Origin: Bacteroidota bacterium
GTDB lineage: Bacteria > Bacteroidota > Bacteroidia > AKYH767-A > 2013-40CM-41-45
Assembly: GCA_031411835.1 (NCBI GenBank)
Contig: JANOBV010000274.1
Coordinates: forward strand, 132 to 64,131
Length of the DNA stretch: 64,000 bases
Direction of reading: 5' to 3'
The position numbers and the translations under genes were made by a program. The notes under the pieces are model-generated. The model was not told where the DNA came from, ran no database searches, and worked only from the letters and a program-made list of their open reading frames with translations. How positions within the stretch are numbered: position 1 is the first letter of the stretch; the number at the start of each line of letters is the position of its first letter. Below are positions 25,501 through 49,573 of the stretch, in pieces.

Positions 25501-26088
25501 CTAAATTTTAAAATCAGGAATATTTTTTATTGCATCTGTGGAAATTGAAAAATTAAAATCTTCAATTCCGGTACGCATTAACTTATCTTGGAAATGAAAT
25601 TTTAAACTATCGGACAACAATTCTTTCTTCTCAAAAATCATTTCAAAAGAATATCGATCTCCAACTCCACCGGTATTATCATATTGTGACATCAAACACT
25701 TCAAAGTATCTGAACAGTTAACCAAATAGGCATAATCATTAAAATGAAATTTCAGTTGACTATCATAACTTTCTTTTGTAAGTGAATCAATACTTCCAAA
25801 CAACATTCCTCTATTTGAATATATTTCTGTTTTAAAATAAATGTAGTCTTGAAATCGCTCTTTAACCTTTGCAAATTCTGCATCATTTAGTTTAATTCCT
25901 CTTAGTTCTTTCAAAGCTAAATAGTCACTTGGCTCATATTGTATTTCAACAACCATGTCGCCGAAGGAGTTTCTAATAACTAATCCATTTTTCGGATTTC
26001 GAACGTATTCCACATATTCTTTTGTCTCCAATCGGGTTGTACAAGAGCCCAAAATCAAAATAGAGAAAACATATATTAAATATTTCAT
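25501..26088 (-). CDS. Lipoprotein of unknown function, operon partner
   Basis: 195-aa ORF. Lipobox ILGSCTT. 3-nt gap to the downstream gene. Confidence 0.7.
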   Translation of the reverse strand: MKYLIYVFSILILGSCTTRLETKEYVEYVRNPKNGLVIRNSFGDMVVEIQYEPSDYLALKELRGIKLNDAEFAKVKERFQDYIYFKTEIYSNRGMLFGSIDSLTKESYDSQLKFHFNDYAYLVNCSDTLKCLMSQYDNTGGVGDRYSFEMIFEKKELLSDSLKFHFQDKLMRTGIEDFNFSISTDAIKNIPDFKI

Positions 26089-27168: not shown

Positions 27169-29130
27169 TTAATATGAAAGTGTAATATTCATCTGAACTT
27201 GATAGCTTGAATTATAATTAATAAATTCTCCTGCAGAAAGAAAATCGTTCCTGCTTCCACTGAAACCAACTGACAGGTTTTTACTTTGACTCCAATTCGC
27301 GCCAATAGAAGTAACAATTGTATTTTGCACACCAATATTATTAATCGACAATCGCTCATTGAAACTGATCTTTTTTAGTCTGAACGAATGCATAACTGAA
27401 GTAGTAGAACCTAGTCTTTTCTCAATTCCGTAATCATTTTTGTAAATGTTTTCCTGGATTTGAATTACCGAGCTTTTCGCCTTATACTGAAAAACACAAC
27501 CATAATTTTCATTTATAGAATTAAGACCTGTAGCAGATTTCGAATAATTTTTACTATACAAAGTTTTAAAATCGGACTTCTTTGAAATCTGATAACCGAC
27601 TGAAATCTGATAAAAATTAGAAACATTTGTAAAGCCGTCTTCCTGCGTGTATACTAAATAATTATTTACACCATATTTAATTCCAAGCTTAATCTTTGAA
27701 CTAACCTTTAGATTCGAGTTAACTAAAATTGAATTTCTCTTCCAACTAGTACTAATTGCATTTTCAAACTTAAAATTCAGCTTAAGCTTATCAACGAAAA
27801 ACATTTTTTGAACTTCTCCCGACATTGCAGTATAACCTGTTGTTAAATACAGGTTGCCCGGAGTAAAATAATCTCTTCCAATTACCAAATACTTGGCTCT
27901 GATGTCACAATTCAGTTGTTTTACATGAGTGTTCAATTCAACACTTGCAGAATAGTCGCGCTCATTACCTTGTTGGTCGTCTTTAATATTTTTAGCAATT
28001 ACTCCAACGGCATCCACGCCTTTTACTATTTCTTTTTCTATGTTCAAAGAAACCAATGAAACCTGTGATGCTCTAGCCGGATCTAATTCTTTAACATCGT
28101 TGTCAAATTTTGTAAAGGATAATATTGTATTATTTCCCGGCCTTCCAATTCCGGCAGACAAGGAATAAAAATTTCGTCCTTTCTCATTTTCAAGAATAAC
28201 ATTGTTGAATGAACCTACACTCAAATTATCAAATGAAATTCGCCTGTTAATTCCTGATGTAAATCCGGCAATAATTTTTCCATCAGAGTATTTCAATTTT
28301 ATGCCGTTGAAATTATAATTGTACAATGTTAACCATGATTCGTTTGTTGATTGAACTCCGATATTGATCGTTTCGAAATTTGATAAAATCTTATGGCTCC
28401 TTTTTCGAATCGCCCCTACACTTTTCGCTTTTGTAATTATAGAATCATTCAATTCCTTTTGTTCTTTTAATCGAGCTTTCTTTATTTCAACCTCATTAAA
28501 ATAATTCTCCTTCAACTCTTCAAATTCAGCTACGGAATTTCTACAAGATCTCAATTGATTTGTATCTACCGAATAATCAACTTTTCTTAGTGAATCTCTA
28601 AAATCATTCGTATTGAGACTATCTTCTGAAACATTTAATGAATCGACAATTTTACTTGCATATCTTGCTGAGTCAATCTTGTACTTGGCCAAATACATTT
28701 TTGCAATCGAAATCAATTGTAAATATTCAGGATCAGAAAGTATTTTAGTAAGGCTATCTATTTTTTGATCATTAAAATTCTTCAGCTTACTTATACTATC
28801 TTCTCTTGCTGATAGTCGTTGAAGCATTTCATTTCTCGAAAATGAAATATTAAAACAATTAAACTGAACATTTCCATTGGGCAAGCGAGTTGCGTTCCAA
28901 ATGAAATTAACCGGGATGTCATATGCACTTATAGTTTCAACAAATTGAAAATTCGCAAATGCTCCACTTTGCCCATATAAATTATTTTGCATAAATCCGA
29001 TGCTCCCTGTTGTTCTTCCACTCACATTTATATTAGACAAAAGACGGCTTTTCTCCTGGGCAAAACTCGTTTTTATAAAAGTCAGCAGCATGCAATTAAT
29101 TATTAAATAATATAAAACTAATCTTCGCAA
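27169..29130 (-). CDS. Putative outer-membrane beta-barrel protein with a central coiled-coil segment; first gene of the operon
   Basis: 653-aa ORF. Signal peptide TFIKTSFAQE. Amphipathic alternating strands in the C-terminal half. C-terminal ...QMNITLSY ends in an aromatic residue, as OMPs typically do. Confidence 0.65.
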   Translation of the reverse strand: MRRLVLYYLIINCMLLTFIKTSFAQEKSRLLSNINVSGRTTGSIGFMQNNLYGQSGAFANFQFVETISAYDIPVNFIWNATRLPNGNVQFNCFNISFSRNEMLQRLSAREDSISKLKNFNDQKIDSLTKILSDPEYLQLISIAKMYLAKYKIDSARYASKIVDSLNVSEDSLNTNDFRDSLRKVDYSVDTNQLRSCRNSVAEFEELKENYFNEVEIKKARLKEQKELNDSIITKAKSVGAIRKRSHKILSNFETINIGVQSTNESWLTLYNYNFNGIKLKYSDGKIIAGFTSGINRRISFDNLSVGSFNNVILENEKGRNFYSLSAGIGRPGNNTILSFTKFDNDVKELDPARASQVSLVSLNIEKEIVKGVDAVGVIAKNIKDDQQGNERDYSASVELNTHVKQLNCDIRAKYLVIGRDYFTPGNLYLTTGYTAMSGEVQKMFFVDKLKLNFKFENAISTSWKRNSILVNSNLKVSSKIKLGIKYGVNNYLVYTQEDGFTNVSNFYQISVGYQISKKSDFKTLYSKNYSKSATGLNSINENYGCVFQYKAKSSVIQIQENIYKNDYGIEKRLGSTTSVMHSFRLKKISFNERLSINNIGVQNTIVTSIGANWSQSKNLSVGFSGSRNDFLSAGEFINYNSSYQVQMNITLSY

Positions 29131-33907: not shown

Positions 33908-34505
33908 ATGACTCTGAAATACATGAACGAATTTCCAACGTACATCCTGAACGGATACAACTTCGAAGCAATGCTCCAGTATGCAATGAAAAATATTTAC
34001 GGGATGAAGGCTCAGCACGATATGCTGTACTTCGCACTTGTACGAATGCAGAACGACTGCGGATGGAATGAGAAGACAATCGGTGTCCCACGATCAAGAG
34101 CTATGACGGTCGGCGTTTTCGAATCGAACGATTTACTACAAGAAGCTTGTGGAACCACAAGAGTTCGGACTGATACAGATCGTGAAGAAATCACACAACC
34201 CATCCGTGGCAACGATCGTTTCGCTTCAAACGGAAGCATTCCGTAATTTTATTTCTGCACGGATAAAGAAAAAGGCTAAGGGAGATGTACCAAATGTGGT
34301 ACATGTAGATGTACCAAAAGTGGTGCATTATGATGTACGAGAAAAGGGGCATCTTAATGGGTCACATATTAAAGAAATGGCCCTACGGCCCATTTCAGAA
34401 AAAAAGGAAATGAAAGTCAAACGGCAACGGAGCCGCATAGGCGGACTCCTGCCGGTAAGGAAACAGGACGTTACAGTCAGTACAGTCCTCCACCTTCTAT
34501 CATGA
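33908..34505 (+). pseudogene. Winged-helix, replication-organiser-like gene split by an apparent frameshift
   Basis: Frame A ends ...LYFALVRMQNDCGWNEKTIGVPRSRAMTVGVFE. The +1 frame continues SNRTIYYKKLVEPQEFGLIQIVKKSHNPSVATIVSL. The switch lies near the T-run at ~34110-34125. Confidence 0.35.
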
Positions 34506-34777
34506 AAGAATTTTTATCACACCTTCACGAACAAGAAGTACCAAAAGAGAACGCTCATACTGTGTTAACGATGTCAAACAACATAGACGTGTTACAATCC
34601 ATCAAGTCATTCCAACCGAACCTTCACGAAGAAGATGTAAAGCGCACGATCAATGCTATCGTGACATTCCTTCAGGACAATCCATCGCGTGAAGGAGATG
34701 AAACTATAGATGCGTTTATACTCACGGTTGATCGGAAACGTGCACTCAAACAATCAAAGGATGATGATCTCTCATAA
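34502..34777 (+). CDS. Hypothetical protein
   Basis: 91-aa ORF. ATGA overlap with the preceding ORF. Confidence 0.4.
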   Translation: MKEFLSHLHEQEVPKENAHTVLTMSNNIDVLQSIKSFQPNLHEEDVKRTINAIVTFLQDNPSREGDETIDAFILTVDRKRALKQSKDDDLS

Positions 34778-35013
34778 CACGACCAAAAAAGAATGCAGGA
34801 TGCGGTAATTCATGACTCCTCAATAATTGAATGTTTGCAGTCGGTTGCGGAGGTGTGAGACGTGTTGCGCTTCTTCACGCATATATCTTTTACGGTAGTT
34901 TATTAGGTTCGCACCGTGACGTCCCACAGGACGTAATAGCATCGCATTAGGACTCATCTGGATGATCCGGATATTTCGAATGCTATTGTGCACCAAAATG
35001 ATTACAACTCAGT

Positions 35014-35532
35014 ATGCCAAGAAAGAACAACGATATAACGCACAGAAGTCACGTCGAAGAGGTCGCTCAAAAACTTTTGGAGTTCTGGCCGAACTGGAAG
35101 ATCAGAAGCGTGCTCGGAAAAAAGTTTGATCTATCTAATTCTATGATGGAAAAGATGATCGTCGAAGCACAGAAGTTGATATGCGAGTCAACGAATAACT
35201 GGGAACAAGAACTCGCCAAGCATATCGCACGCGGAAATAACCTTCTGAACAAAGCGATTGAGAAGGATGATCTTCTTACAGCATCGACCATGTTCGCCAA
35301 CCTTTCCAGATTGAGCGGGATGGAACGAACATCTATCGATTTATCAAGCATCGGTGAAGCTATTCAAGCCGCACAGATCATTTTCCAGTTACCAGAACCG
35401 AAGCAAAAAACGCTCGACACTTCGGCAAATGCCTTAGCTGAGTTGTCGATAGGATCTGGTTACCAGCTCGATGAGCTGCTTCACAGCAGCCCTCCAAAGG
35501 ATGAGACGATCATAGATCGGTTCCAAAACTGA
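35014..35532 (+). CDS. Hypothetical helical protein
   Basis: 172-aa ORF in the GC-richer block. No motif I can name with confidence. Confidence 0.5.
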   Translation: MPRKNNDITHRSHVEEVAQKLLEFWPNWKIRSVLGKKFDLSNSMMEKMIVEAQKLICESTNNWEQELAKHIARGNNLLNKAIEKDDLLTASTMFANLSRLSGMERTSIDLSSIGEAIQAAQIIFQLPEPKQKTLDTSANALAELSIGSGYQLDELLHSSPPKDETIIDRFQN

Positions 35533-35703
35533 GCCTATTCCGTTAGACAGAAATGATGAGTGAGGGACGAAGTCATTACATCCCTGGTGAGCAGGGAATA
35601 GTTGCTGAGTTGAACATTACACACGCCGGTTGGACACGTCTGGGATTGCATACCCAGTCACATTTTTAAAATAATTAAGAAACACTATGTAAAATCAATA
35701 ACT

Positions 35704-35994
35704 ATGAAAACATATAAAGTCAAACCAGCACCAGATAGTAACAAGACGAAACAAGTAATTCAAGAGCTGGCAGAATTAGAAGGCCATGTAAATACGAAGC
35801 CGACCAGAGTGCAAAGCACAGTTCCGTATTTGCAACACTTACGCTCAGAGGTAAACATGCTAGAACTAGAAAGTGGTTTACGTATTCCGAACGGAATCCT
35901 GGTAATTATAATTCGTGAACTGATAAGCACATTACCGAATAATTATTCTGTCGAAGGTTCTAAGACAGAAGTGATAATCCGCCGCAACCAGTGA
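35704..35994 (+). CDS. Hypothetical protein
   Basis: 96-aa ORF. Its stop overlaps a following short ORF start (TGAATG). Confidence 0.4.
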   Translation: MKTYKVKPAPDSNKTKQVIQELAELEGHVNTKPTRVQSTVPYLQHLRSEVNMLELESGLRIPNGILVIIIRELISTLPNNYSVEGSKTEVIIRRNQ

Positions 35995-36060
35995 ATGGGT
36001 CAATATGATGTATCAGATCATGTTGATGGTCCTGTAGTTGCTGGTGAAGTTTCCGGTGAT

Positions 36061-36108
36061 GTTCTTAGTACAGTTCTTAGTATAGTTCTTCGTACAGTTC
36101 TTCGTACA
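36061..36108. repeat. Four tandem 12-bp repeats
   Basis: gttcttagtaca gttcttagtata gttcttcgtaca gttcttcgtaca. Confidence 0.9.
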
Positions 36109-36180
36109 GTTGATCCTGTATATGACGTCCAAACTAGTACTAGTATTAAAAAATTAATAAACAGATCATGATCCATTTCT

Positions 36181-36240
36181 GTGTATAACTGTGCATAATT
36201 GTGCAAAATTGTGCAAAAATGTGCAAAATTGTGTTAAATT
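36181..36240. repeat. Six 10-bp helically phased iteron-like repeats
   Basis: gtgtataact gtgcataatt gtgcaaaatt gtgcaaaaat gtgcaaaatt gtgttaaatt. Confidence 0.9.
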
Positions 36241-36480
36241 GATCCAGATCGATGATGTTGAAAAGTGGCATCCGATGGTATACGTTTGTATCTTGTAGTA
36301 ATGATAAGCGCGGTGTAACTTTGTAGTAACAAAAAACCGGAAGATGGTCTAGATCTCCCGGCTTAATAAAAATACCACAAGTGTGACTCTTAGCGCCATC
36401 TTGTCTGCAGTATAAGACAAGACCCTCAGGGCTCATGGATTTGTGGCGAGGGCGAACTACCTCCGACAATACAAAGGTTG

Positions 36481-36520
36481 GAAGATGCTTTTGCATTGGC
36501 AATAGCATCTTCTCTTTTTT
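36481..36520 (+). terminator. Intrinsic terminator on the plus strand with no plus-strand ORF upstream
   Basis: GAAGATGCT-t-TTGC-attg-GCAA-t-AGCATCTTC followed by tctttttt. Confidence 0.55.
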
Positions 36521-36801
36521 ATGAACAGTTATGCACCGCTGTATGTGCAAAATTTCTGTAGCTATTCCAAACCACTTGTCCAGTAAGGCCTTCCAGCGTT
36601 CTTAACAAATTTTGTTTATAACTCTCTATTGACAACACAGTGAGAATCACAGTTGAAAATAGGCTTTTTCAGTCTAAAAAATAAGCAATCATTTTTCAGT
36701 GTAGTGAGAATAGTTGCGAATCGCATCGCATTCTATTGTTGATTGTGGTTTTGTTTTTCTCAAATATTCATTTAGTTTTGATTATTCTAAATCATATATC
36801 A

Positions 36802-37290
36802 ATGAAAAAGCTCTTAAAGACCTTCCTAGTTCTAGCATTTTTATTTGTTGCTTTTAATACTCCTGCAAATTCCGCTGGTGATCGGCCACTAGAAAGTTCG
36901 TCTGATTCACTAATATCCGCAACAACTACAATTACGAAAGTAGTAGATGTTAATGACGGATGGTTAAATACGGGAATACATGTACTGTCAGGATGGAGAG
37001 TCACATTTGTTGCAGATCCTGGAGGAAGATGGATTTTAAACGATAGTCCACCATGTGATGCCAAAGGTTATAATACGAAATGCGGTAGTGGATGTATGGT
37101 AGTTGGTGCTCATCATGGGAGTCTGGTGGCAAAGATTGGTCCAGTACAATTAGAAGTAGGAATGCAAGGCCAAATGGATATTGGTGATGGACAAGGTGGA
37201 GTAATATTTATTGGTTGTAATAAAGGACCAGGCAATTTTGGACGTAATGGTCAGGTTGCCGTCACTATGACGATTGAGCGCATTCCTTAA
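36802..37290 (+). CDS. Secreted protein, possibly a PA-IL/LecA-like lectin fold
   Basis: Signal peptide MKKLLKTFLVLAFLFVAFNTPANSA. The pattern DGWLNTGIHVLSGWRVTFVADPGGRW...GSLVAKIG...GGVIFIGCN...NGQVAVTM is reminiscent of PA-IL-like domains. Confidence 0.5.
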   Translation: MKKLLKTFLVLAFLFVAFNTPANSAGDRPLESSSDSLISATTTITKVVDVNDGWLNTGIHVLSGWRVTFVADPGGRWILNDSPPCDAKGYNTKCGSGCMVVGAHHGSLVAKIGPVQLEVGMQGQMDIGDGQGGVIFIGCNKGPGNFGRNGQVAVTMTIERIP

Positions 37291-37427
37291 TACGTTTGAC
37301 GCATGGCTAAAGCAAAAAGAAAAACACCACATAGGTACACCTCAGAAGAGGATGCATTCCTGTTGCAGACAGTGCGGGCTCACATCTAATAAATAAAAGA
37401 TACCTTAACTTTTTAACTATACCATTT

Positions 37428-38132
37428 ATGAAAAAATTATGCTACTTCTCCCTTTTAATTTTTGTTTTGAATTCATGTTCAAATAACTCAGTTGACAATA
37501 ACTCGGGTGACAAGTTTCTCGGGACATGGCACAACCCACAGATGCACGGAAAGAGTTTCGAAAAATTAGTCATCGAGAAAAACGGTGACGACTTTCTTGT
37601 AACATTCACAAGGAAAGTCTTCGAGGACGCGATGTTCTATAATCATGACGGAGAGTTCAAGGAAGTTGGGAAGCTCGTTGGAAACTCCATCGTTATAAAT
37701 GATCGGACAAAAATATCGCTTATCAACAATGGCGATGGGCTACTTATGCGCGGAATTGAATTTGCCAAAGGTGATAAGGAAGCTGTTTCCGAACAACAAG
37801 TAGATTTGGCACCAGAACAAATTCAAAAGAATAACAAAATACCTGGTTTGGATGCGATGTTGGGTACTTTTCAGGCTAAGGAAGATATGCCTAAAATAGA
37901 AGTAAAAGGCCGCACAATCGATTATTTTACAATACAAAGATCTCAAGAAAATATTTTAGATATAACGTTCTGCTTGCTTCCTTGCAACGATCCGAAGGAA
38001 GAACTTCACGTAAAAGGTGAATACGATCCGGCAACAAAAACTATTATTCATCAGGAACTCAGAATATATTTCGTTGGACCACAAATGATTTTAAATGTAG
38101 ATGGATCAGAGTATCACTTCAAAAAATATTAG
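37428..38132 (+). CDS. Lipoprotein of unknown function
   Basis: 234-aa ORF. Lipobox VLNSCSNN. Confidence 0.6.
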   Translation: MKKLCYFSLLIFVLNSCSNNSVDNNSGDKFLGTWHNPQMHGKSFEKLVIEKNGDDFLVTFTRKVFEDAMFYNHDGEFKEVGKLVGNSIVINDRTKISLINNGDGLLMRGIEFAKGDKEAVSEQQVDLAPEQIQKNNKIPGLDAMLGTFQAKEDMPKIEVKGRTIDYFTIQRSQENILDITFCLLPCNDPKEELHVKGEYDPATKTIIHQELRIYFVGPQMILNVDGSEYHFKKY

Positions 38133-38159
38133 GACTCGTGATGATAGGTAAAATCACAC

Positions 38160-38357
38160 CTACCCGAGCTCTCTGATCTTTGCGTCTAGCATTTTTCTCA
38201 CACTGTCTTTGTATGGATCGTACACCAACTCGTCGCGTTTATCGCCGCACCAGAATTCTACTTTCCTCTTGTCGTCAGTCATCTTGTACTCCTGGTACTC
38301 TACCACCAGCTCACCCTTCGTTAAGCTGCCGCTCGTCATACGTGTTCCTGCTTGCAT
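38160..38357 (-). CDS. Small hypothetical protein
   Basis: 65-aa ORF. Competing ORFs exist on the opposite strand. Confidence 0.25.
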   Translation of the reverse strand: MQAGTRMTSGSLTKGELVVEYQEYKMTDDKRKVEFWCGDKRDELVYDPYKDSVRKMLDAKIRELG

Positions 38358-38417
38358 TGCAATCTTTTCTTTGTCAGAATGTACGAACTATTTTCTTTTC
38401 GAGCACATATCTTTTTG

Positions 38418-38690
38418 CTAAGCATGTTCCTTAGTTAACATAGCGACGACAAGAATTGTTAGACCAATTATAAACAATACATATCCGGATCGATTGCAAA
38501 TGCGACTTTTCTTCCTCGCGTTAGCAAGACGTAATTTATCTTCATCGGCAAAAACCACTGAATCAAATCTGCCGTGTGTTGGCAATATGCGTTCAATGAT
38601 TTCGGCTACCATGTCACCTTGAATGTCTGCTGACTTTGCGAGCAGATATGCTCCAACCGCATTTAGGACGAGTCCTATTATTTCTACCAT
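38418..38690 (-). CDS. Small two-helix membrane protein
   Basis: 90-aa ORF. Hydrophobic N- and C-terminal helices (IIGLVLNAVGAYLL, YVLFIIGLTILVVAML). Confidence 0.45.
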   Translation of the reverse strand: MVEIIGLVLNAVGAYLLAKSADIQGDMVAEIIERILPTHGRFDSVVFADEDKLRLANARKKSRICNRSGYVLFIIGLTILVVAMLTKEHA

Positions 38691-38717
38691 TTTTGTTTTA
38701 AAAAATAGGTGGCAAGA

Positions 38718-39131
38718 TCAACGATTTCTATTTAAGACTGCATCCTGTTGGTCTTGTGCTTGACGTGATGCTTCTGCAGCAAGTGACGCAGCAGCCAAAG
38801 AATCTTCTTTATTCCAATCTTTATCGCTTATCCTTATGAATGATATTGGATTGCCCGTTGCTCTGTCAAGAATTATATCGTTGCCCTCAATGTATTCGAA
38901 ATCTCCGTAGGAGGTCATGAGCATATTGTGAGAGAGTGTCATATTGTTGCGTTGGATTACAGTATTATTTGACTTGATCAAAGTGCAGGTGTAAATGTTC
39001 CCATACTTATCAATCTTTACTGCCTTAGAATAGGTTGGACTAGTCGCCTTCCAATAACCAACAATTGATTTAGACTCACAGGAACTAATAAGAATTGCCG
39101 ATAAGGATAATAGTTTTAGAATGTTTTTCAT
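38718..39131 (-). CDS. Lipoprotein of unknown function
   Basis: Internal start MKNILKLLSLSAILISSCESK (lipobox). The longer ORF-track start at 39185 is less likely. Confidence 0.55.
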   Translation of the reverse strand: MKNILKLLSLSAILISSCESKSIVGYWKATSPTYSKAVKIDKYGNIYTCTLIKSNNTVIQRNNMTLSHNMLMTSYGDFEYIEGNDIILDRATGNPISFIRISDKDWNKEDSLAAASLAAEASRQAQDQQDAVLNRNR

Positions 39132-39327
39132 GTTTTTATTTGTTTCGAAACAAAAATAAAAAACTTTTATAAAAAAAACTAACAAAACAATTGAAACATT
39201 CTCCTATTGCATTATCACAATCTGGACATTGCTTTCATTTTATAAAATATGTTGAACGGAAGATATAAAAAAATGTCGGGAAAACAAGTACGGCTCTGAG
39301 GTATATAAAAAAATAAAGAGCAACTAC

Positions 39328-39756
39328 ATGGGATGTGAAATTGACACACTACTACTACGGGGCGATAGCGGAATAACAAAAAAGGTTTACAAGACTGTGC
39401 ATGTCTGCTCGTCTTCTGTGCCCTTGCCGCAGATAAGTGAAGACGAGTGCATAGATTACGCCAAGCAACAGATAAAACGGGATCTACGTGAACGTATGTA
39501 TACCAACTCACTCGCTTGGTGTCCCGATACTATGAAGGAAGGCCTCGAAGCTTTTGCCTCTACCTGGATCGATAACAACATTAAATACGAACTGCGGGAC
39601 GACTACGAGAAAGATAATTTTGAAGATACCATCGTCTTCAAGTTGTACGTGATGTGCTACTACCAGCAAGGAAGATGCTATGAGAAAGATCTTGACATAT
39701 TAGAATCTCGCAGTTTCGATTTAGATGGCTACGAATTTCGAAACGAGAATTGTTGA
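39328..39756 (+). CDS. Hypothetical protein, translationally coupled to the glycosyltransferase-like gene
   Basis: 142-aa ORF. TGA stop immediately followed by the GTG start at 39757. Confidence 0.45.
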   Translation: MGCEIDTLLLRGDSGITKKVYKTVHVCSSSVPLPQISEDECIDYAKQQIKRDLRERMYTNSLAWCPDTMKEGLEAFASTWIDNNIKYELRDDYEKDNFEDTIVFKLYVMCYYQQGRCYEKDLDILESRSFDLDGYEFRNENC

Positions 39757-40443
39757 GTGAAGCTCGTAGCGATCATACCGACGCGAGGAGACAGGCCTGA
39801 GTTGTTGAAAAACACACTCGGGCTTCTCTCTTCTCAGACCATGCCGCCGGACTTTACAATGGTTGTAGGTCCGGACGTCGTGCCGGTCGCAGGCACAGAC
39901 ATCACCAGAAGATACAAGGCAGGTATCGCGGCGGCTTCGGCATCTGCCGATCTCATCATGTTCATAGAAGACGACGATTGGTACGGGCCGCGATACATCG
40001 AGACTATGTACTACGGTTGGCTCGAAGCGGGATCACCGCAATGCTTCGGGTGGGATCGCACGACGTACTACCACATCGTGTCACGCAAGCACATGACGAA
40101 CACTCACAAAGGGAGATCGTCAGCGATGAACACGATGATCACGTCGAAATCTATTTCTCACATCGGATTTCCGCTCGACTCGGAGCCGTTCTTCGACCTG
40201 CACGTCTGGAAATCGTTAAAGGGGAAATCTGTAACGCGTCGCGATCACGATCAACACTGCATCGGGATAAAACACGGGGTTGGAATGACCGGAGGAAAAG
40301 CACACGACAAAGACTGGAGGGGATTCACGACCGAAGATCCTGACATGTTTTGGTTGAAAGAGAGAGTGAACAGAGAGTCGTTTGAGTTGTATTCTAATAA
40401 AGAAAAGTTTTCGTTCCCTGCAGATCGCTCATGTGGTAGATGA
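39757..40443 (+). CDS. GT-A fold (family 2-like) glycosyltransferase
   Basis: VAIIPTRGDRPELL at the N-terminus and an acidic IMFIEDDDWY (DxD-type) motif. The gene is strongly GC-enriched. Confidence 0.55.
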   Translation: MKLVAIIPTRGDRPELLKNTLGLLSSQTMPPDFTMVVGPDVVPVAGTDITRRYKAGIAAASASADLIMFIEDDDWYGPRYIETMYYGWLEAGSPQCFGWDRTTYYHIVSRKHMTNTHKGRSSAMNTMITSKSISHIGFPLDSEPFFDLHVWKSLKGKSVTRRDHDQHCIGIKHGVGMTGGKAHDKDWRGFTTEDPDMFWLKERVNRESFELYSNKEKFSFPADRSCGR

Positions 40444-41413
40444 TTATTTTACAATTGTTGTCCCCGCGAAGAATGTAATTAGTGAGTGAGAAACTCATTG
40501 TGTATTCTAGGCTATAGAAAAGATTTTCCGAAGTGAATTTATTATCGTCATTTACTATAAAGATAATGTCGTGTTCTGGTCTATAGTTTCCCATCTGGCC
40601 CGATGGCTTAGTTTGATCAAACCAATTCCGGTACTGATGGTAGAGATTGACAATCTTTAAATCGATTTTTTCAGCATCGGATACACTTGCATAGATGTTG
40701 TTATCAATGATGACACTGATGTAATTACTCTGCGGCGGTCCGTCGTGTTCATCAAGAAACCCGTCCCAATATATTGTAGACGTGTTTGTTTTTCGAAAAA
40801 CATTAACATACACTTTGAGGTCATCCTCTGGATCTCGCCACATTCCGGTACTATCTCGCACCATTTTATCATGTGTCCATCCTGTTAGTGTTAGGAGATA
40901 TTTATGCACTGCTTGGCGCACTAGCTGTTTTGCTTGATCGAAGCTCATGTCGTTTGGTGCTTTTTCTGCAATGAATTCTTCGAATGTTCTCTTGCTTATA
41001 AGACCAAATAATTCGCTTTGATGGCTAATGTTGTTCGCGTATTGATAATCCAACCTTCGTTGATTCTCATCGAACGCACGTTTCATCTCTTCACGAGTGA
41101 GTTGATCTTTGTTAATAATGGTTTTAAGATATTCTGAATTAGTGCTGTCCTTCGTGTGAAGGTTAGCTCTGTATGTGGAATCGAGCTTTGCTACCTCTGC
41201 CTTTTGTTTTGCTTCAGAGTCCTTTTCTTTCGCGGCGGCCTCGCTCTGAGAACGCGAGGTTGCCCACGCCGTCGCGAAGATTACTATGATCGCAAATAGG
41301 CCAGTCAGCCTTCGTACGAGAAGATCTTTCTTTTTGTCGTTTTCGTATTTGTAAATCTGCAGTACGGCAACAGCGACAGATGCAACTACTGCGGTGATTT
41401 CAAAAGCTGTCAT
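40394..41413 (-). CDS. Membrane-anchored protein (two N-terminal TM helices, coiled-coil linker, unknown C-terminal domain); third gene of the DUF262 operon
   Basis: 339-aa ORF. ITAVVASVAVAVLQI and LFAIIVIFATAWAT helices, then the charged AAAKEKDSEAKQKAEVAKL. Confidence 0.65.
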   Translation of the reverse strand: MTAFEITAVVASVAVAVLQIYKYENDKKKDLLVRRLTGLFAIIVIFATAWATSRSQSEAAAKEKDSEAKQKAEVAKLDSTYRANLHTKDSTNSEYLKTIINKDQLTREEMKRAFDENQRRLDYQYANNISHQSELFGLISKRTFEEFIAEKAPNDMSFDQAKQLVRQAVHKYLLTLTGWTHDKMVRDSTGMWRDPEDDLKVYVNVFRKTNTSTIYWDGFLDEHDGPPQSNYISVIIDNNIYASVSDAEKIDLKIVNLYHQYRNWFDQTKPSGQMGNYRPEHDIIFIVNDDNKFTSENLFYSLEYTMSFSLTNYILRGDNNCKIIIYHMSDLQGTKTFLY

Positions 41414-41452
41414 AGATAAATCTAAAATTCATTGTACAAGTTTTTTTGCTTT

Positions 41453-41968
41453 TCAATAGCAGCCTGGTTCCCATGCTTTATTTTCATCATCTAGTGTCTT
41501 TAGATATTTTTGTGTAGATCCTCTGTTTATTAAAGCAAAGGAATCCGGGTTTGCTATAAATAGTATTTTTGATTTAATTCTTCCGGGATTTTCTAATCTT
41601 AAATCAATCACTGTAATTTTCTCGGAAGGACAATACTCAGAAAAATTCTTTAAATCTTTTTCGGGTTCATTATATTGCTCGTAATTAAAATCCGGATTAC
41701 AACAAGCACCGCCATTTAATAGATATTCAAATCCTTCTAGTTCCTTCTCAACAACAAATTTCTCACCTATTTTTCTTACCAATAAAATGCCTTCTCCATT
41801 TAATATTTCAGAAGTCAAATCTACATGGCTTTCGCCTAACAATAGGCCTCCTTTTTTGCCGTCTATGACTAGATTATTTGATAAGAGCAAATCAAAATCT
41901 TCTTTTGAAATTTCGACGCCCTTCAAGTCTTTCGAGTTTGCAAATATATTGTCCAGTATTTCCATCAA
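41453..41968 (-). CDS. Hypothetical cytoplasmic protein; second gene of the DUF262 operon
   Basis: 171-aa ORF. 12-nt gap after the DUF262 gene and 39-nt gap before the next gene. Confidence 0.6.
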   Translation of the reverse strand: MMEILDNIFANSKDLKGVEISKEDFDLLLSNNLVIDGKKGGLLLGESHVDLTSEILNGEGILLVRKIGEKFVVEKELEGFEYLLNGGACCNPDFNYEQYNEPEKDLKNFSEYCPSEKITVIDLRLENPGRIKSKILFIANPDSFALINRGSTQKYLKTLDDENKAWEPGCY

Positions 41969-41980
41969 GATCGTATTTAA

Positions 41981-43588
41981 CTAATCATCAAAATGGACTA
42001 ATTCTCTCAAATATTCAAGGACAAGTTCCGATCGGGCTACTATGAATCTTTCATAATCATTGGATTTATAAATGCTTTTAACATTTGGCAATAGATTGCT
42101 ATACATTATTCCATCGAATTCCTTTGATGGAATCTCTTTAAAGAAATAATCTTTAGGCTCTCGTTTGGAAATTGTTTTGTTAGAGTCTGCGGGCAAAAAA
42201 CAAAAATTCAATACGTTGTTTATGGCATCGGATTCCAAACCCTGACTTTTTAAATACGCGTTCGGAAATACGTGGTGGAATTCTTTTCTGTTGTATTCTG
42301 ATAACGCTTTTCCTAAGTCAATCGGGGAGTTTTTGATAAGATCAATGGGATTACGTTGTGCCATCATAAGCAGAAAAGCTCTAGTGAGATAATTGCTTTT
42401 GCTAAAATTTGTGTTAATCAATTGGGATTGATTAACTGTTGTGGGGTATGTTTCAAGTCCTCCATTATTTCCTGCTCTAAACTGGACCATGTTGTAAATG
42501 TCATAATTCATTTTTTGAGTAGTAGTACCTGTCACATATCTATTTGAAAATGCTGTTCTCCAAAACCAGTTTTTTAACCATGAGAGTTCTTTAGCTTTGA
42601 TCTTTCCCGGAATAGAGAAAAATTTAATTATTCCAACCAATTGTTGAATTGCAGGCAAAAAATCTTGATGAACACAATTGAGGCCGGTCGAAAGAAAATC
42701 AATTGCCTTTTTTACAGCAGCTGTATAATTTTTCCATTGTTGCCTTACAATTTTCCCGTCAAGTTTTAATACTGCTTGAGTAGTGCTATCATTTTGTATC
42801 ATCCCTGATAGTGATTGCAAGATGATTTGGTTTGGTACATGACCAAATCCTTTTGCTTCCAGTCTTTCGATTAGCTCGTGAGTCGATTCAAGAAGATGAA
42901 AATCATCGGTCCACGTCCAAGCTGTCATAAGATCCAATGTGGATAGTTTTGTTCCTGTGTTGTTGATCCTTTCAAAGATAATACCCACCTCTTCTTTTGA
43001 TCGATGTTTAATTGTTACTACTGGGATCTCATAATTTAAAAATCGTGAACACAACTCAGTCGCATCGTTATGATATTTCGTATCCAATTCGCTCAAGGCT
43101 GGAATCAATTTTGAAGTATTGATCAGGTTCTTTAAATGAATAACGGATTTGGAAAGTGCATCAATCTCGGTACTCGGTACAAATGTTTTATACTGGAAAT
43201 CATAGTGGATTTCAAAGAGGTCGAGATTAGGGTTGTAATTATCAGTAGAGCGATCTTGTTCTGTCTTGTCACTGAACACTGCATAGATTGATGACAATCT
43301 TTGTTGGCCATCGAGGACATAATTAAGAGGGTAATCCATTTCTGAATCAGGAATTTTATACCCTGCAATATTTCTTGTGTGCTTTAGTCTTTCTTTGGTA
43401 TACCATAACAAAACACTTCCAATGGGATAGTTGTCATTTATACTATCAAGCAATTCGATGATCTGATTTTGTTTCCACACATACGATCTTTGGAATGCAG
43501 GAATACGAATATCACCCGAGTTTATTCTCTGAATAAGTCGATCTATCTTTTCTGAGGTGGGGGTTAATTCCGGCTGTTTTATGCTCAT
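41981..43588 (-). CDS. DUF262 (ParB/Srx-like) protein with a C-terminal His-Me-like motif; GmrSD/BrxU/SspE-type nuclease candidate
   Basis: IRIPAFQRSYVWKQNQIIELLDSI..YPIGSVLLW and LDGQQRLSSIY in the N-terminal half. EFHHVFPNAYL...NNVLNFCFLPADSNKTIS near the C-terminus. Confidence 0.8.
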   Translation of the reverse strand: MSIKQPELTPTSEKIDRLIQRINSGDIRIPAFQRSYVWKQNQIIELLDSINDNYPIGSVLLWYTKERLKHTRNIAGYKIPDSEMDYPLNYVLDGQQRLSSIYAVFSDKTEQDRSTDNYNPNLDLFEIHYDFQYKTFVPSTEIDALSKSVIHLKNLINTSKLIPALSELDTKYHNDATELCSRFLNYEIPVVTIKHRSKEEVGIIFERINNTGTKLSTLDLMTAWTWTDDFHLLESTHELIERLEAKGFGHVPNQIILQSLSGMIQNDSTTQAVLKLDGKIVRQQWKNYTAAVKKAIDFLSTGLNCVHQDFLPAIQQLVGIIKFFSIPGKIKAKELSWLKNWFWRTAFSNRYVTGTTTQKMNYDIYNMVQFRAGNNGGLETYPTTVNQSQLINTNFSKSNYLTRAFLLMMAQRNPIDLIKNSPIDLGKALSEYNRKEFHHVFPNAYLKSQGLESDAINNVLNFCFLPADSNKTISKREPKDYFFKEIPSKEFDGIMYSNLLPNVKSIYKSNDYERFIVARSELVLEYLRELVHFDD

Positions 43589-44558
43589 AAAATTTTATAT
43601 TAAAATCTATTTAAGATTTGAGAAATATCGGAATAAAATTAAAATAAAAAAGGGAGACATTTCTGCCTCCTTTTAGTATATAGACTAACAATCGTTTTAT
43701 ATATCATTTGACTTTTAATCCCATCTCTTTGCAATGTGCCAGTATCTTTTCGATGATCGGTGCAGTGATTTGATTGCATTTTATGTGCGTCTTTCTTTAA
43801 ACTTCGAAAATGTCAACATCATCAATGAAGTTACACTTGCATGGGTTTGTCTTTACTCTTTCGCTTCCTTGATTGGGGCATAATATCCCAAACGTTGAAC
43901 CAATTTGTATGGACATACTTTTTGGATTACAAATTGAACAACCATCTACTGTATAACAAGTTTAAACATTTTGTTGATTCAATACATCAACAAATGATTT
44001 TAAATTGTATGTTAAAACTCAATCTGGATCTTGAGTTCAGATTGATTCATCGACTCAAGTCTAAAGGATTGAGAAATGTAAAGTTCAAACCCACGTCGTC
44101 CGACTTTCCGCATTCGACAGTTTGCGAGTTGACAGTCGGCTTAAGGCGAAAAATCGACAAGAGATTCATGGTGACAAAATCTGAAAATGTGATTGAATTC
44201 ACAAAAGAAAACCGCTACATGCAAGAAGAGATAGAGAATCATCTAACTGAGTTAAAACTCGCAAATCAAAACACAATCCCATGCTTTAATATTCAAACTC
44301 TATTACTAGAAATAGGAATTTAGCAATAATCAATATATTAAATAGCATATCTGTCATCACCTGAAAGTTTTTGCCTCATTAAACAAAAATCAAAATCAAA
44401 CCCTTCGTCTAACAGCTCTTCTATTTTTTTTTTGAACTTTTTATTTTGATACTGAGAATGCAATATCGAATAATACTTCCAATGCCAGTTCCCAATATTT
44501 TTGACTACATGATACTTTGGCCGTTTGAGATCATTATTAAAATCATCTATACATGACT

Positions 44559-46819: not shown

Positions 46820-46884
46820 GGTTTCAAATATATTAATAAAATCAACATATATGTTGATTTTATTAATATATTTGAAACCATGGA
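46815..46884. promoter_or_regulatory. Perfect 70-bp palindrome forming the whole divergent intergenic region
   Basis: Base-by-base pairing checked from centre 46849/46850 out to 46815/46884. It includes both start codons (46817-46819 minus, 46880-46882 plus). Confidence 0.9.
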
Positions 46885-47782
46885 TTTAGACAAAACTATA
46901 TACTACAAGTCAAAATATTTTGATTTGCGCCCATTTGTACTTGATGATACCGGGGTTACTCACAGAGAACTCTCCCATTGGGAAGAAAAAGATTTGCTGT
47001 TCTCTAAAACAGATTCAAATAAGTGGAAGCGCTTTAATCTAGTAGAACTTGCTTGGATCAGATTCATTGCTCAATTAAGAAAACTTAATATTGGGTTGAA
47101 GACAATAAAATTGATTAAGAAAGAATTGCTATCTGATATAAATCAAAACATAAAGGATGAAGTGCTTCTTTATGCAATTGATATATTAAAAAAATCGCAC
47201 CCCGATTTCCAAATGTCTGATGACAATAAAAAAGAATTACAACAAGTAATCGACAATCTTCAAATGTCATTTTTTGAAAGTTCTCTTTACGAAATGCTAA
47301 TTTTAAAGACACCCATATCAGTTGCAATCTCAATAAAAGCGAATACTGCAGATAAAGAAGTTGAATCTATCGATGACCAACTATTTATGGACCTCATACA
47401 TTGGCAAAGAGTCATTGACGAAAACGCTATGGACAAATTTCTGGACACTCTAAAGTCAACTTGTATTTGCATTTCATTGAATGAAATTCTTCAGGATGTA
47501 TTCAAGAATATATCTACCCTTAAATTATCAAAGCTTTTCAGTCTTACCCCTGCTGAAATAAAATTAATTTCTGAAGTAAGAAAATCAAAATATAAGTCTG
47601 TTGAAATTACATTTGACAATAATAACAAACCCAATCTAATAATTTCAACTGAACAAATTGAAATCACAAACCTAGCGAAACTATTAGAAGTTCTTTCTAA
47701 AAAGGGATATAGAAAGCTGAACCTAATTGAGGATAATGGAAAAATTGTTCACTTTGAAATTGCAAATAAAATAAAATTGTAA
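46880..47782 (+). CDS. MerR-like HTH protein with a long C-terminal extension
   Basis: TGVTHRELSHWEEKDLLFSK...RFNLVELAWIRFIAQLRKLNIGLKTIK resembles a MerR N-terminal domain. Confidence 0.65.
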   Translation: MDLDKTIYYKSKYFDLRPFVLDDTGVTHRELSHWEEKDLLFSKTDSNKWKRFNLVELAWIRFIAQLRKLNIGLKTIKLIKKELLSDINQNIKDEVLLYAIDILKKSHPDFQMSDDNKKELQQVIDNLQMSFFESSLYEMLILKTPISVAISIKANTADKEVESIDDQLFMDLIHWQRVIDENAMDKFLDTLKSTCICISLNEILQDVFKNISTLKLSKLFSLTPAEIKLISEVRKSKYKSVEITFDNNNKPNLIISTEQIEITNLAKLLEVLSKKGYRKLNLIEDNGKIVHFEIANKIKL

Positions 47783-47864: not shown

Positions 47865-48011
47865 ATGTTAACTATTGATGAAGCAAAGAAAATATTAAAC
47901 AAAGAAAACGAAGAATACACTGATAGCGAAGTTGAAATAATCCTAAAGGTCCTGCAAAGATTTACAGAACTTGAAATAGAATTTCTAAAACAAAAAGAAA
48001 TAGATGATTGA
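47865..48011 (+). CDS. Small leader ORF overlapping the recombinase start
   Basis: 48 codons, MLTIDEAKKILNKENEEYTDSEVEIILKVLQRFTELEIEFLKQKEIDD. 8-nt overlap with 48004. A homologous relic lies at 32420-32617. Confidence 0.5.
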   Translation: MLTIDEAKKILNKENEEYTDSEVEIILKVLQRFTELEIEFLKQKEIDD

Positions 48012-49539
48012 TGTAATAATTTATTCGAGAGTCTCTACAGACGAACAAGCAGATAAAGGATACAGTTTAAGATCCCAGGAAGAAAAGATGCAAACTTTTT
48101 GTAAGTTTTTAAATTACAATATAGTCAAGCATTTTCAGGAAGACTTCTCCGCTAAGACATTTGACAGACCACAGTTCAATCAACTTTTATTATTTCTTAA
48201 GGAAAATAAAAATATTAGAAAACTTATTCTTATAAAATGGGACAGGTTTTCAAGGAATGTTTCAGACGCACTGAATATGCTGAAGACTTTACGACTTATG
48301 AATGTCGAAGTTATAGCAATCGAACAACCAATAGACATCAACATTCCGGAACAGAAAATGATGCTTTCAATTTATCTCACCGCACCTGAAATTGAAAATG
48401 ACCGTCGATCTTTAAACACCATGTCAGGAATGCGCAGGGCACAAAGAGAAGGCCGATGGGTAGCTTCAGCACCAAGTGGATACAGTCTCAAGAAAGATGA
48501 ACGGAACAAAACCGTACTTGTCAAGAATGAAAAAGCCAAGCTAGTGGTAATGGCTTATGAATTATATGCTAGTGGAAATTATCATTTGGAAGAAGTTCGA
48601 AGGATCATGAATAAAAAAGGTCTTAATATTGGCCGAAGCCAGTTCTGGAATTTTTTGAGAAATCCTATCTATATTGGAAAGATACATATCAAAGCGTTTG
48701 GTAACGAGGAATCAGAAACTGTAGATGGTCTACATGAAGCGACTGTTTCAAATGAGTTATTTCAAAAAGTACAAGATGTTGCTGAAGGAAAAGCAAGAAT
48801 AAAAACTAGAATGAAAAAAGTCAGTGTCGCATTTCCACTTAGAGGACATTTGATTTGCCCTACATGCAATAAAACTTTAACAGCAAGTAAAAGTAAAGGA
48901 AATGGAGGTCAATATTCTTATTACCATTGCCAATCAGGATGCAAAGAGAGGCAGACCTCAACAGAGATACACGAAACATTCTTAAAGATGCTGAACCAAC
49001 TAACATTAAAACCTAAAGTTGCAGAATTGTATCATGTAATGTTATTGAAGTCATTACAAAAACACCGATCAAATCTTAAGCTAGACAAAAAAACTGTTAA
49101 CGAAAAAATTTCAGTTATAAATAAAAAAATAGAAAAAGTAGATGAGAAGTATATTGAAGATGGGCTAGATAAAGAAACATACAAACGATTAATAAGCAAA
49201 TACAAAAAAGAAATTTCTGAACTTCAATCTCAAATCTTCATTGACTCAATTGCAAATAAAAATGAAATAGAAAATGGACTTGGTCTATTGACCAATTTAG
49301 AAAAGTTCTATGAAAATGCTTCGATTGAAATTAAACAAAAACTGATTAGTTCGATATTCCCGGAAAAATTAATTTATCAGAAAAGAATTTATCGAACCAC
49401 TAAAGCTAGTGAGATACTTCGTCTGCTTTACGCCACTAGAGCGGGTTCTGAGACATTTATAAAAAATGAAAACCGGAAGAAATTGAATTCTTCCGGTCAG
49501 GTAGCCCCGACAGGAATCGAACCTGCATCAAAAGTTTAG
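48004..49539 (+). CDS. Large serine recombinase (integrase)
   Basis: VIIYSRVSTDEQ catalytic-serine motif, recombinase domain, zinc ribbon CPTCNKTLTA...YYHCQSGC and a coiled-coil segment. The last ~14 codons (QVAPTGIEPASKV) are templated by the tRNA gene. Confidence 0.9.
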   Translation: MIDVIIYSRVSTDEQADKGYSLRSQEEKMQTFCKFLNYNIVKHFQEDFSAKTFDRPQFNQLLLFLKENKNIRKLILIKWDRFSRNVSDALNMLKTLRLMNVEVIAIEQPIDINIPEQKMMLSIYLTAPEIENDRRSLNTMSGMRRAQREGRWVASAPSGYSLKKDERNKTVLVKNEKAKLVVMAYELYASGNYHLEEVRRIMNKKGLNIGRSQFWNFLRNPIYIGKIHIKAFGNEESETVDGLHEATVSNELFQKVQDVAEGKARIKTRMKKVSVAFPLRGHLICPTCNKTLTASKSKGNGGQYSYYHCQSGCKERQTSTEIHETFLKMLNQLTLKPKVAELYHVMLLKSLQKHRSNLKLDKKTVNEKISVINKKIEKVDEKYIEDGLDKETYKRLISKYKKEISELQSQIFIDSIANKNEIENGLGLLTNLEKFYENASIEIKQKLISSIFPEKLIYQKRIYRTTKASEILRLLYATRAGSETFIKNENRKKLNSSGQVAPTGIEPASKV

Positions 49540-49573
49540 GAAACTTCTATTCTATCCATTGAACTACGGGGCC
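49500..49573 (-). tRNA. tRNA-Arg (anticodon CCU)
   Basis: Hand-folded cloverleaf. Acceptor GGCCCCG/CGGGGCT, D-arm GTTC/GAAT, anticodon arm GAAGT-TTCCTAA-ACTTT, T-arm GCAGG-TTCGATT-CCTGT, discriminator A. Confidence 0.85.

Follow-up and report, generated by a model that had tools for sequence, protein, structure and literature searches.

Three ORFs and a terminator-like hairpin, all on the minus strand, make up the locus described here. They reside in a 64,000-nucleotide stretch of Bacteroidota DNA, hereafter the window. In the order of transcription, the elements are:

43653..43670, minus strand: terminator-like hairpin and T-run, some 65 nt ahead of the start codon of gene 1 (terminator-site scan)
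41981..43588, minus strand: gene 1, predicted BrxU/HEC-05-type GmrSD-like protein, with a DUF262 NTPase domain, a helical linker and a divergent His-Me nuclease domain (Pfam, PADLOC, BrxU profile match)
41453..41968, minus strand: gene 2, predicted soluble protein of an unannotated small-protein family (90 relatives, family alignment A2)
40394..41413, minus strand: gene 3, predicted protein that opens with two hydrophobic helices, continues as a long helical stretch and ends in an alpha/beta domain (family alignment A1, model)

The products measure 535, 171 and 339 aa, respectively. Gene 1 starts at an ATG; gene 2 is read from a TTG, or as a 170 aa protein from an ATG located one codon later. 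Genes 1 and 2 are accordingly separated by 12 nt (12–15 nt, depending on the start), genes 2 and 3 by 39 nt. ORFs and gaps are thus as described in a first-pass annotation of this DNA. The hairpin at 43653..43670 is the sole minus-strand terminator-like site found in the interval 40000-44500, and sets gene 1 apart from anything upstream. Since the three genes lie on the same strand, are separated by short gaps, and no minus-strand terminator-like sites were found between them, they are probably co-transcribed. Sigma-70-type promoter-like sites are no commoner than expected by chance, exact TAnnTTTG matches are fewer than the shuffle mean (70 vs 86.8), and no exact TAnnTTTG precedes gene 1 or gene 3. 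Tight spacing, common strand and lack of internal terminator-like sites make co-expression, and some functional link among the three genes, possible.

The same layout had suggested that the trio could be a defence system. In its explicit form, this reading features a lineage-specific abortive-infection system, in which the DUF262 protein, on sensing or cutting foreign DNA, would signal, via the 171-aa protein, to a membrane effector with two transmembrane helices. One strand, gaps of 12 and 39 nt and no internal terminator-like site are in its favour; data on the distribution of the three genes, reported below, are not.

The locus had also been placed inside a mobile island. A large serine recombinase gene (48004-49539) abuts a tRNA-Arg (49500-49573), a MerR-type gene is located at 46880-47782, and G+C content is patchy. 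These features make the mobile-island setting plausible; att repeats and island borders were not found, and the search for att-like repeats of the tRNA-Arg region retrieved 11-13-mers attributable to chance only. The tRNA is the sole Rfam match. A BREX- or Ssp-embedded context, envisaged for nucleases of this type, was not observed: no BREX and no Ssp genes, and neither PDC-M55A nor PDC-M55B, were identified by PADLOC and Pfam among the ten ORFs that flank the three genes.

The three motifs singled out earlier in gene 1 are present, and start at residues 29, 93 and 438:

43475..43504, minus strand: IPAFQRSYVW motif of the DUF262 domain, residues 29-38 (P30, A31, F32, Q33, R34, V37 and W38 invariant in 16 orthologues)
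43298..43312, minus strand: DGQQR motif, residues 93-97, nucleotide-hydrolysis motif of GmrSD-like proteins (invariant in 16 orthologues)
42179..42277, minus strand: putative His-Me finger segment HHVFP...N461...N470, residues 438-470 (H438, H439, F441, P442, N461 and N470 invariant in 16 orthologues)

The Pfam GmrSD_N model (DUF262, PF03235) matches residues 17-224 (E = 5.8e-33, above the family cut-off). The role of DGQQR has been described in BrxU and HEC-06 (PMC8565348; 10.1101/2024.01.29.577857). The sequence ELLDS (residues 45-49; S49 is invariant in the 16 orthologues) aligns with RLFDS in the BrxU structure 7p9k, a nucleotide-binding and dimerisation motif (PMC8565348). The PADLOC model HEC-05 matches the protein over the full length (residues 12-531 of 535 vs 25-593 of 600 in the model, 1.6e-30). 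The top PADLOC score is for component C of PDC-M55 (5.3e-66, residues 7-460), and the models SspE and Orf5 also match, weakly (1.8e-5 at best) and in the N-terminal part only. A phmmer comparison to BrxU is significant for residues 16-68 only; a profile built on the 16 orthologues matches 7p9k at 1.2e-13, in three collinear segments.

At the opposite end of the protein, HHVFP at residue 438 is followed by ...NNVLNFCFLPADSNKT, and in the alignment of the 16-orthologue profile to 7p9k HvfP is paired with HIYP of the DHIYP nuclease motif of BrxU. Gene 1 has no match to the Pfam GmrSD_C model (DUF1524, PF07510), whose best value among the 16 orthologues is E = 0.09, in one of them. The region is denoted a putative nuclease domain by its motifs, by the match to the PADLOC HEC-05 profile and by the alignment to BrxU, which is weak. 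Judged from its sequence, gene 1 is predicted to encode a complete GmrSD-like enzyme of the BrxU/HEC-05 type, as its first description as a GmrSD/BrxU-type DUF262 and His-Me protein had anticipated.

Orthologues of gene 1, 48–65% identical, were identified in 19 genomes, which belong to Bacteroidota and Gammaproteobacteria apart from one Gracilibacteraceae MAG. Neither gene 2 nor gene 3 was found near any of them (0/19 loci, within up to 7 kb, by tblastn and HMM), and no neighbour family is common to more than 2 of the 19 loci. The possibility that large neighbours of the orthologues encode type I R-M subunits was dropped, because 9 out of 10 had no PADLOC match. Three plasmid-borne homologues (27–35% identity) are followed by three different small genes, none related to gene 2. 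The scan of viral contigs for gene 1 was empty. BrxU alone gives phage defence (PMC8565348); as, in addition, no neighbour is shared by the 19 orthologous loci, gene 1 would function on its own and not depend on a partner gene.

Genes 2 and 3 match no family in Pfam, NCBIfam, PADLOC or PHROGs, in line with the earlier failure to recognise a motif in the former and a known domain in the latter. PDB sequence-profile searches with either gene gave nothing significant, and neither was found in collections of viral contigs, phages and plasmids.

A word-indexed search with gene 2 retrieved an identical copy only, and the family emerged from an exhaustive search, which identified 90 relatives at E <= 1e-3. 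The family thus includes about 90 small proteins; its six named members all come from Bacteroidota. Members share the motifs GGLxLGxSH..GGI and ExEGxEY, and 45 of them, searched against Pfam, gave no match. Structure prediction, advised for both proteins of the pair, was successful for gene 2, which was modelled with confidence (pLDDT 92.5). Foldseek found nothing at E <= 0.001 for this model, either in PDB or in BFVD. A ParB/Srx fold, hinted at by a few Foldseek matches at E > 1, was rejected by profile-profile comparison with gene 1. Gene 2 is predicted to be a compact soluble protein; its conserved residues (Gly, His, Glu) may belong to a site for catalysis or ligand binding.

Gene 2 relatives reside in seven independent contexts (L027, L028, L029, L030/31, L033/34, L035/36, L037), as a solitary gene each time; no DUF262 gene, gene 3 relative or shared neighbour was found in them. 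Being small, soluble and encoded directly downstream of the nuclease gene (12–15 nt), the gene 2 product could be imagined as an antitoxin-like regulator or inhibitor, which restrains the gene 1 nuclease. This is very improbable, because the gene is missing from all 19 orthologous nuclease loci, has relatives where no DUF262 gene occurs, and in profile-profile comparisons is unrelated to gene 1, as it is to gene 3.

Gene 3 relatives are very rare, as only four other clusters were found among 5.8 billion proteins; a metagenome scan with the gene 3 alignment found L007 again, and nothing more. Two N-terminal transmembrane helices had been claimed, and two hydrophobic segments are indeed found there:

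41351..41413, minus strand: first hydrophobic (predicted transmembrane) helix of gene 3, residues 1-21 (Kyte-Doolittle 19-aa windows > 1.6; model helix 3-21)
41261..41326, minus strand: second hydrophobic (predicted transmembrane) helix of gene 3, residues 30-51 (Kyte-Doolittle 19-aa windows > 1.6)

The 19-aa windows scoring > 1.6 start at residues 1-3 and 30-33, and none occurs later in the protein. In the model, which in contrast to that of gene 2 has low confidence (pLDDT 58), long helices (27-85, 93-140) are followed by an alpha/beta domain. All Foldseek matches have E >= 0.16, and the best ones, none significant, are PD-(D/E)xK nucleases (among them Shedu, HamA, FokI and Mus81). Gene 3 was not assigned to these nucleases, given model confidence and E values, and because alignment A1 shows no conserved (D/E)xK triad.

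The four independent contexts in which gene 3 relatives were found (L002-4, L005, L006, L007), mostly short contigs of 1.7–3.4 kb, include neither DUF262 genes nor gene 2. In two of them (L002, L005) a RES-domain gene adjoins the gene 3 relative, and in L005 the latter is also accompanied by a tandem paralogue, by an OLD-like ATPase and by BrxC/BrxD, in a region which hosts TerB_C as well. Among gene 2 relatives, one adjoins SIR2_2 + DUF87 and AbiEii (L030), another SNIPE and AAA_23 + MComp1 + CTD4 genes (L027). These neighbourhoods, as well as the non-significant similarity of the gene 3 model to nucleases, would fit the hypothesis that gene 3, and possibly gene 2, are independent single-gene defence or abortive-infection factors stacked beside gene 1, all working in defence with separate functions. 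We regard this as unlikely. Two gene 2 contexts are not defence-like, as they feature glyoxalase, globin and SnoaL genes (L035), or acetyltransferase and deacetylase genes (L037); the fold of gene 3 is poorly defined and the nuclease triad is not conserved; the lack of PADLOC and PHROGs matches, and the absence from viral contigs, phages and plasmids, also weigh against it.

Co-occurrence was assessed by running HMMs of all three families over the 19 gene 1 loci and the four gene 3 and seven gene 2 independent contexts. Among the fetched loci, the window and L001 are the only places where genes 1, 2 and 3 are found together; L001 is a 3.8-kb contig, a 99.5% identical copy, which comes from a second metagenome sample and, on the basis of this identity, is the same element. 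A sensor plus membrane-effector neighbourhood conserved across genomes was not observed. Lack of co-conservation with DUF262 genes is the outcome that the first-pass annotation had named as refuting its own proposal. The stretch from gene 1 through gene 2 into the 5' portion of gene 3 is nearly unchanged in L001: gene 1 has no differences in 1608 nt, and 13 of the 19 differences cluster in the final 154 nt, which lie within gene 3. GC3 also varies among genes 1, 2 and 3 (0.33, 0.26 and 0.43, respectively). Differing GC3 and the jump of divergence within gene 3 point to a mosaic locus. Fourteen of the 16 nucleotide differences located inside gene 3 are synonymous; by this measure, the gene encodes a predicted membrane-anchored protein under purifying selection.

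These data bear directly on the three-gene abortive-infection system. The near identity of genes 1, 2 and part of 3 in a second metagenome sample, and the gene 3 relatives found in defence-rich regions (L005), may be taken as support. But in the independent contexts of genes 1, 2 and 3 (19, 7 and 4, respectively) the three do not co-occur beyond one element, no partner is conserved among the orthologues of gene 1, BrxU works alone, composition and divergence change along the locus, and genes 2 and 3 match no PADLOC model. The system is therefore improbable, and the trio should not be counted as a new three-gene immune system, since nucleases of this type found elsewhere are never accompanied by genes 2 and 3. 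A bolder variant has only a slim chance of being right. Genes 2 and 3 would be founders of two undescribed defence-related families (the fold of the first absent from PDB and the viral structure library, the second a membrane-anchored effector), recruited downstream of a BrxU-like nuclease in one lineage as a new tripartite unit, their association being very young and lineage-restricted.

Quite likely, instead, gene 1 is an autonomous, single-protein BrxU/HEC-05-like type IV enzyme, and genes 2 and 3 are unrelated cargo, probably carried on the same transcript. Gene 1 would be a modification-dependent (type IV) restriction enzyme, a GmrSD family member whose nearest known counterpart is BrxU/HEC-05. 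If it works as BrxU does, the DUF262 domain at its N-terminus (ELLDS, DGQQR) would bind and hydrolyse nucleotides, and control a cycle between dimer and monomer; phage DNA containing modified cytosines would next be cleaved by the His-Me finger at the C-terminus (HHVFP...N...N), as in BrxU and its relatives. Genes 2 and 3 would have landed directly downstream of gene 1 in one element, with no part in the nuclease machine; members of both families are found elsewhere alone, in variable, mobile or defence-rich regions.

The locus may thus be viewed as a defence-island juxtaposition of a known single-gene type IV restriction enzyme and two unrelated hitch-hikers, and cautions against naming systems from a single operon-like arrangement. 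Gene 1 marks a BrxU-like clade (48–65% identity, in Bacteroidota, Gammaproteobacteria and one Gracilibacteraceae MAG) missed by the Pfam GmrSD_C model. The gene 2 family (about 90 clusters), with a confident model, no structural neighbour and no entry in Pfam, would lend itself well to curation and structure determination.

GmrSD (EcoCT/Eco94) and SspE are defence nucleases acting on modified DNA, which feature the DUF262 fold and the DGQQR motif (PMC8565348; 10.1101/2024.01.29.577857). Gene 1 has both in common with them; its match to SspE is weak and N-terminal only, and no Ssp or Dnd genes were found among the scanned neighbours. PDC-M55 is an untested phage defence candidate of PADLOC, defined by the cassette FAM_00005>>FAM_02935>>FAM_00004 (Payne et al., 10.1101/2024.01.29.577857). 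Gene 1 matches component C, but components A and B are absent: none of the PDC-M55 models matches gene 2, gene 3 or any of ten neighbouring ORFs. The DUF262-like gene is the last in the PDC-M55 cassette; here it is the first, after the terminator-like hairpin. The closest parallel is BrxU from Escherichia fergusonii pEFER (PDB 7P9K), corresponding to PADLOC HEC-05, which is 99.2% identical to it. In contrast to BrxU, gene 1 lies outside any BREX locus (ten flanking ORFs, PADLOC). Beyond the N-terminal domain the two sequences have little similarity, the GmrSD_C model finds no match in gene 1, and the first residue of the His-Me motif is His in gene 1 (HHVFP) and Asp in BrxU (DHIYP); the xLxDS motif reads ELLDS in the former, RLFDS in the latter. 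Both are single polypeptides of similar length (535 aa vs 587 aa), and share the same order of elements: an N-terminal DUF262 domain with xLxDS and DGQQR, a long linker, a C-terminal His-Me motif and, after it, conserved Asn residues.

The three genes are arranged head to tail on the same strand, with intergenic gaps of 12 nt and 39 nt, as had been described from the sequence:

41981-43588, minus strand: gene 1, DUF262 nuclease-like ORF, 535 aa
41453-41968, minus strand: gene 2, ORF, 171 aa counted from TTG
40394-41413, minus strand: gene 3, ORF, 339 aa

An alternative start of gene 2, an ATG one codon after the TTG (170 aa), was picked by the gene caller on a related contig. Co-transcription of the trio is plausible, because no terminator-like hairpin separates the genes; the sole minus-strand hairpin of this type in 40000-44500 is found at 43670-43653, ~65 nt 5' of gene 1.

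The first-pass annotation took the trio for a candidate three-gene defence system. This reading fails, as genes 2 and 3 are not co-conserved with DUF262 genes: co-occurrence is absent in the contexts of 19 gene 1 orthologues, in 7 independent contexts of gene 2 relatives, and in those of the gene 3 relatives at loci L002-L007. On the best reading, gene 1 is a BrxU-like type IV restriction gene that stands alone, and genes 2 and 3 are two unrelated passengers that follow it.

Gene 1 orthologues (48-65 % identity) were searched in one genome per species, and identified at 19 loci of Bacteroidota, Gammaproteobacteria, and one Gracilibacteraceae MAG. With genes 2 and 3 as tblastn queries (E up to 10), these loci yielded chance fragments only, HMMs of the two families had no matches there, and all-against-all comparison of neighbouring ORFs revealed no family common to >2 loci. 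The adjoining genes are mixed, and encode DUF4917/SIR2-like PDC-S21, PDC-S60-like and HNH proteins, RlaP nucleotidyltransferases, an AMP-binding enzyme, and a SCO1 protein. Large neighbours were suspected to be type I R-M subunits, a guess that was dropped since 9 of 10 lack a PADLOC match. Four of the orthologues (L021, L024, L025, L026; match region about 6980-8600) are split in two frames or truncated, and may be pseudogenes or assembly errors; three come from isolates (Flavobacterium soyangense, Dyadobacter psychrotolerans, Vreelandella azerica). More distant full-length homologues reside in 28 plasmid records. No gene 2 relative lies downstream in the 3 inspected (27-35 % identity), and the small downstream gene differs in each.

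A word-indexed search with gene 2 detected one 99 % identical copy and nothing else; exhaustive HMMER search detected 90 representatives at E <= 1e-3, 13 of them at <= 1e-10. Relatives measure 130-270 aa, save a few fragments, and the alignment spans most of the protein. Residues G39, G40, G44, H47, E77, G78 and E80 are invariant in the family alignment, E75 and N147 nearly so, and these conserved residues fall in two motifs, GGLxLGxSH..GGI and ExEGxEY. Pfam matched none of the 45 members scanned, in agreement with the initial remark that gene 2 has no recognisable motif. All six members with an organism name belong to the Bacteroidota. Gene 2 relatives are solitary in 7 independent genomic contexts, often behind a long spacer, with no DUF262 gene or gene 3 relative beside them and no neighbour common to the family. 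Settings are defence-rich at L030 (SIR2_2 plus DUF87, AbiEii) and L027 (SNIPE, AAA_23 plus MComp1 plus CTD4), not at L035 and L037. The AlphaFold model of gene 2 is confident (pLDDT 92.5, pTM 0.87), and Foldseek found no match in PDB and BFVD at E <= 0.001. The family (41453-41968; L027-L037) is a candidate new domain family.

Gene 3 relatives make only four other 90 % clusters among 5.8 billion proteins (44-74 % identity), and neither DUF262 nor gene 2 was found in their contexts (L002-L007; L006 and L007 are short contigs). At L002-L004 the relative is preceded by a divergent 263-aa gene and a RES-domain gene. At L005 the relative comes after Peptidase_M78 and P63C genes. Directly 3' of it is a tandem paralogue, a 256-aa protein that corresponds to the C-terminal domain of gene 3, and then come an OLD-like ATPase and a RES-like gene; the surrounding island also carries BrxC/BrxD, TerB_C and SLFN_AlbA_2. 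RES-domain genes lie within a few kb of gene 3 relatives in two independent contexts (L005 7687-12184, L002 230-3155), a sample too small for association; the two RES proteins are 31 % identical. The two N-terminal TM helices earlier ascribed to gene 3 correspond to strongly hydrophobic 19-residue windows near 1-21 and 30-51, with none further on. The structural model is poor (pLDDT 58). PD-(D/E)xK nucleases were the top fold matches, not significant and with no conserved catalytic triad, and this assignment was rejected.

Among the loci compared, the trio recurs only as the same element, an apparent mosaic, at L001. This 3.8-kb locus comes from a BUSI22-1-series metagenome, source also of L002 and L003, and matches window 40661-44464 at 99.5 % identity. 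Differences are unevenly placed: gene 1 has none over its 1608 nt, gene 2 has 2, and the last 154 nt (gene 3 codons 199-250) have 13, of which 12 are synonymous. Divergence leaps inside gene 3 from ~0.16 % to ~8 % (window ~40660-40820, L001 3648-3801). Because differences cluster in the last 154 nt, a recombination breakpoint within gene 3 near position 40820 is suggested. GC3 is 0.33 in gene 1, 0.26 in gene 2, 0.43 in gene 3, and 0.62 in the convergent ORF overlapping the gene 3 3' end. Gene 3 is judged a real gene, under purifying selection, because 14/16 of its nucleotide differences from L001 are synonymous. The trio could still be a very young, lineage-restricted functional association, an improbable reading which nothing supports; a restriction gene trailed by passengers is preferred.

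Two abutting plus-strand ORFs at 39328-40443 converge on gene 3; searches of Pfam and of PDB sequences gave no match for either. One (142 aa) has a weak ThsB/TIR-like PADLOC match (4.2e-4). The other (228 aa), whose last 50 nt overlap the gene 3 3' end, is strikingly foreign in composition (GC 0.52, GC3 0.62) versus the 35 % G+C window. G+C is raised in 34000-41000 (0.37-0.44, versus 0.30-0.37 elsewhere), where several small ORFs, judged by eye from translations, have signal/lipoprotein-like N-termini (for example 36736-37290; 37428-38132, with a weak DUF6705 match; 38718-39185). This block appears to have been acquired separately from the gene 1-2 segment. The mobile-island setting initially proposed is plausible: a 511-aa large serine recombinase (48004-49539; Resolvase, Recombinase, Zn_ribbon_recom) overlaps at its 3' end a minus-strand tRNA-Arg(CCT) (49500-49573) by ~40 nt, a likely mobile-element integration site. 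The rest of the window yielded no att repeat. Two giant minus-strand ORFs, 4258-18363 (4701 aa) and 19060-25497 (2145 aa), form one gene string with flanking ORFs to 29130. Their sole Pfam signal is DUF6443, below threshold and close to the N-terminal end of the 4701-aa ORF, and does not suffice to classify that ORF; ORFs 18366-19055, 25501-26088, 26094-27164 and 27169-29130 have no Pfam match.

Gene 1 carries the motifs formerly noted, IPAFQRSYVW, DGQQR and HHVFP, starting at residues 29, 93 and 438, and its designation as a GmrSD/BrxU-type DUF262 protein holds: residues 17-224 match Pfam GmrSD_N (DUF262; 5.8e-33), and PADLOC HEC-05 covers nearly the whole protein (12-531 versus 25-593 of 600, 1.6e-30). 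The top PADLOC model is PDC-M55C (5.3e-66). PDC-M55 is a cassette FAM_00005>>FAM_02935>>FAM_00004, known in 47 instances (Payne et al. supplement, 10.1101/2024.01.29.577857); FAM_00005 also opens a cassette folded into HEC-01, an ATPase plus TOPRIM system (10.1101/2024.01.29.577857). PDC-M55 is absent from the trio locus, as none of its models matches genes 2, 3 or ten flanking ORFs, and gene 1 is first in its unit, not last as in PDC-M55. BrxU, a GmrSD-family type IV restriction enzyme, is 99.2 % identical to HEC-05 (10.1101/2024.01.29.577857). S49, D93-R97, H438, H439, F441, P442, N461 and N470 are invariant in 16 gene 1 orthologues, and ELLDS, which holds S49, is the counterpart of BrxU RLFDS. 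The nuclease domain is read as a divergent His-Me finger, from motifs and profile alignment rather than Pfam, because GmrSD_C fails to match gene 1 (best among orthologues, E = 0.09 in one). BrxU by itself suffices for phage defence (PMC8565348), and gene 1, a BrxU-type GmrSD-like enzyme and a further member of a known group, would by analogy act in the same way.
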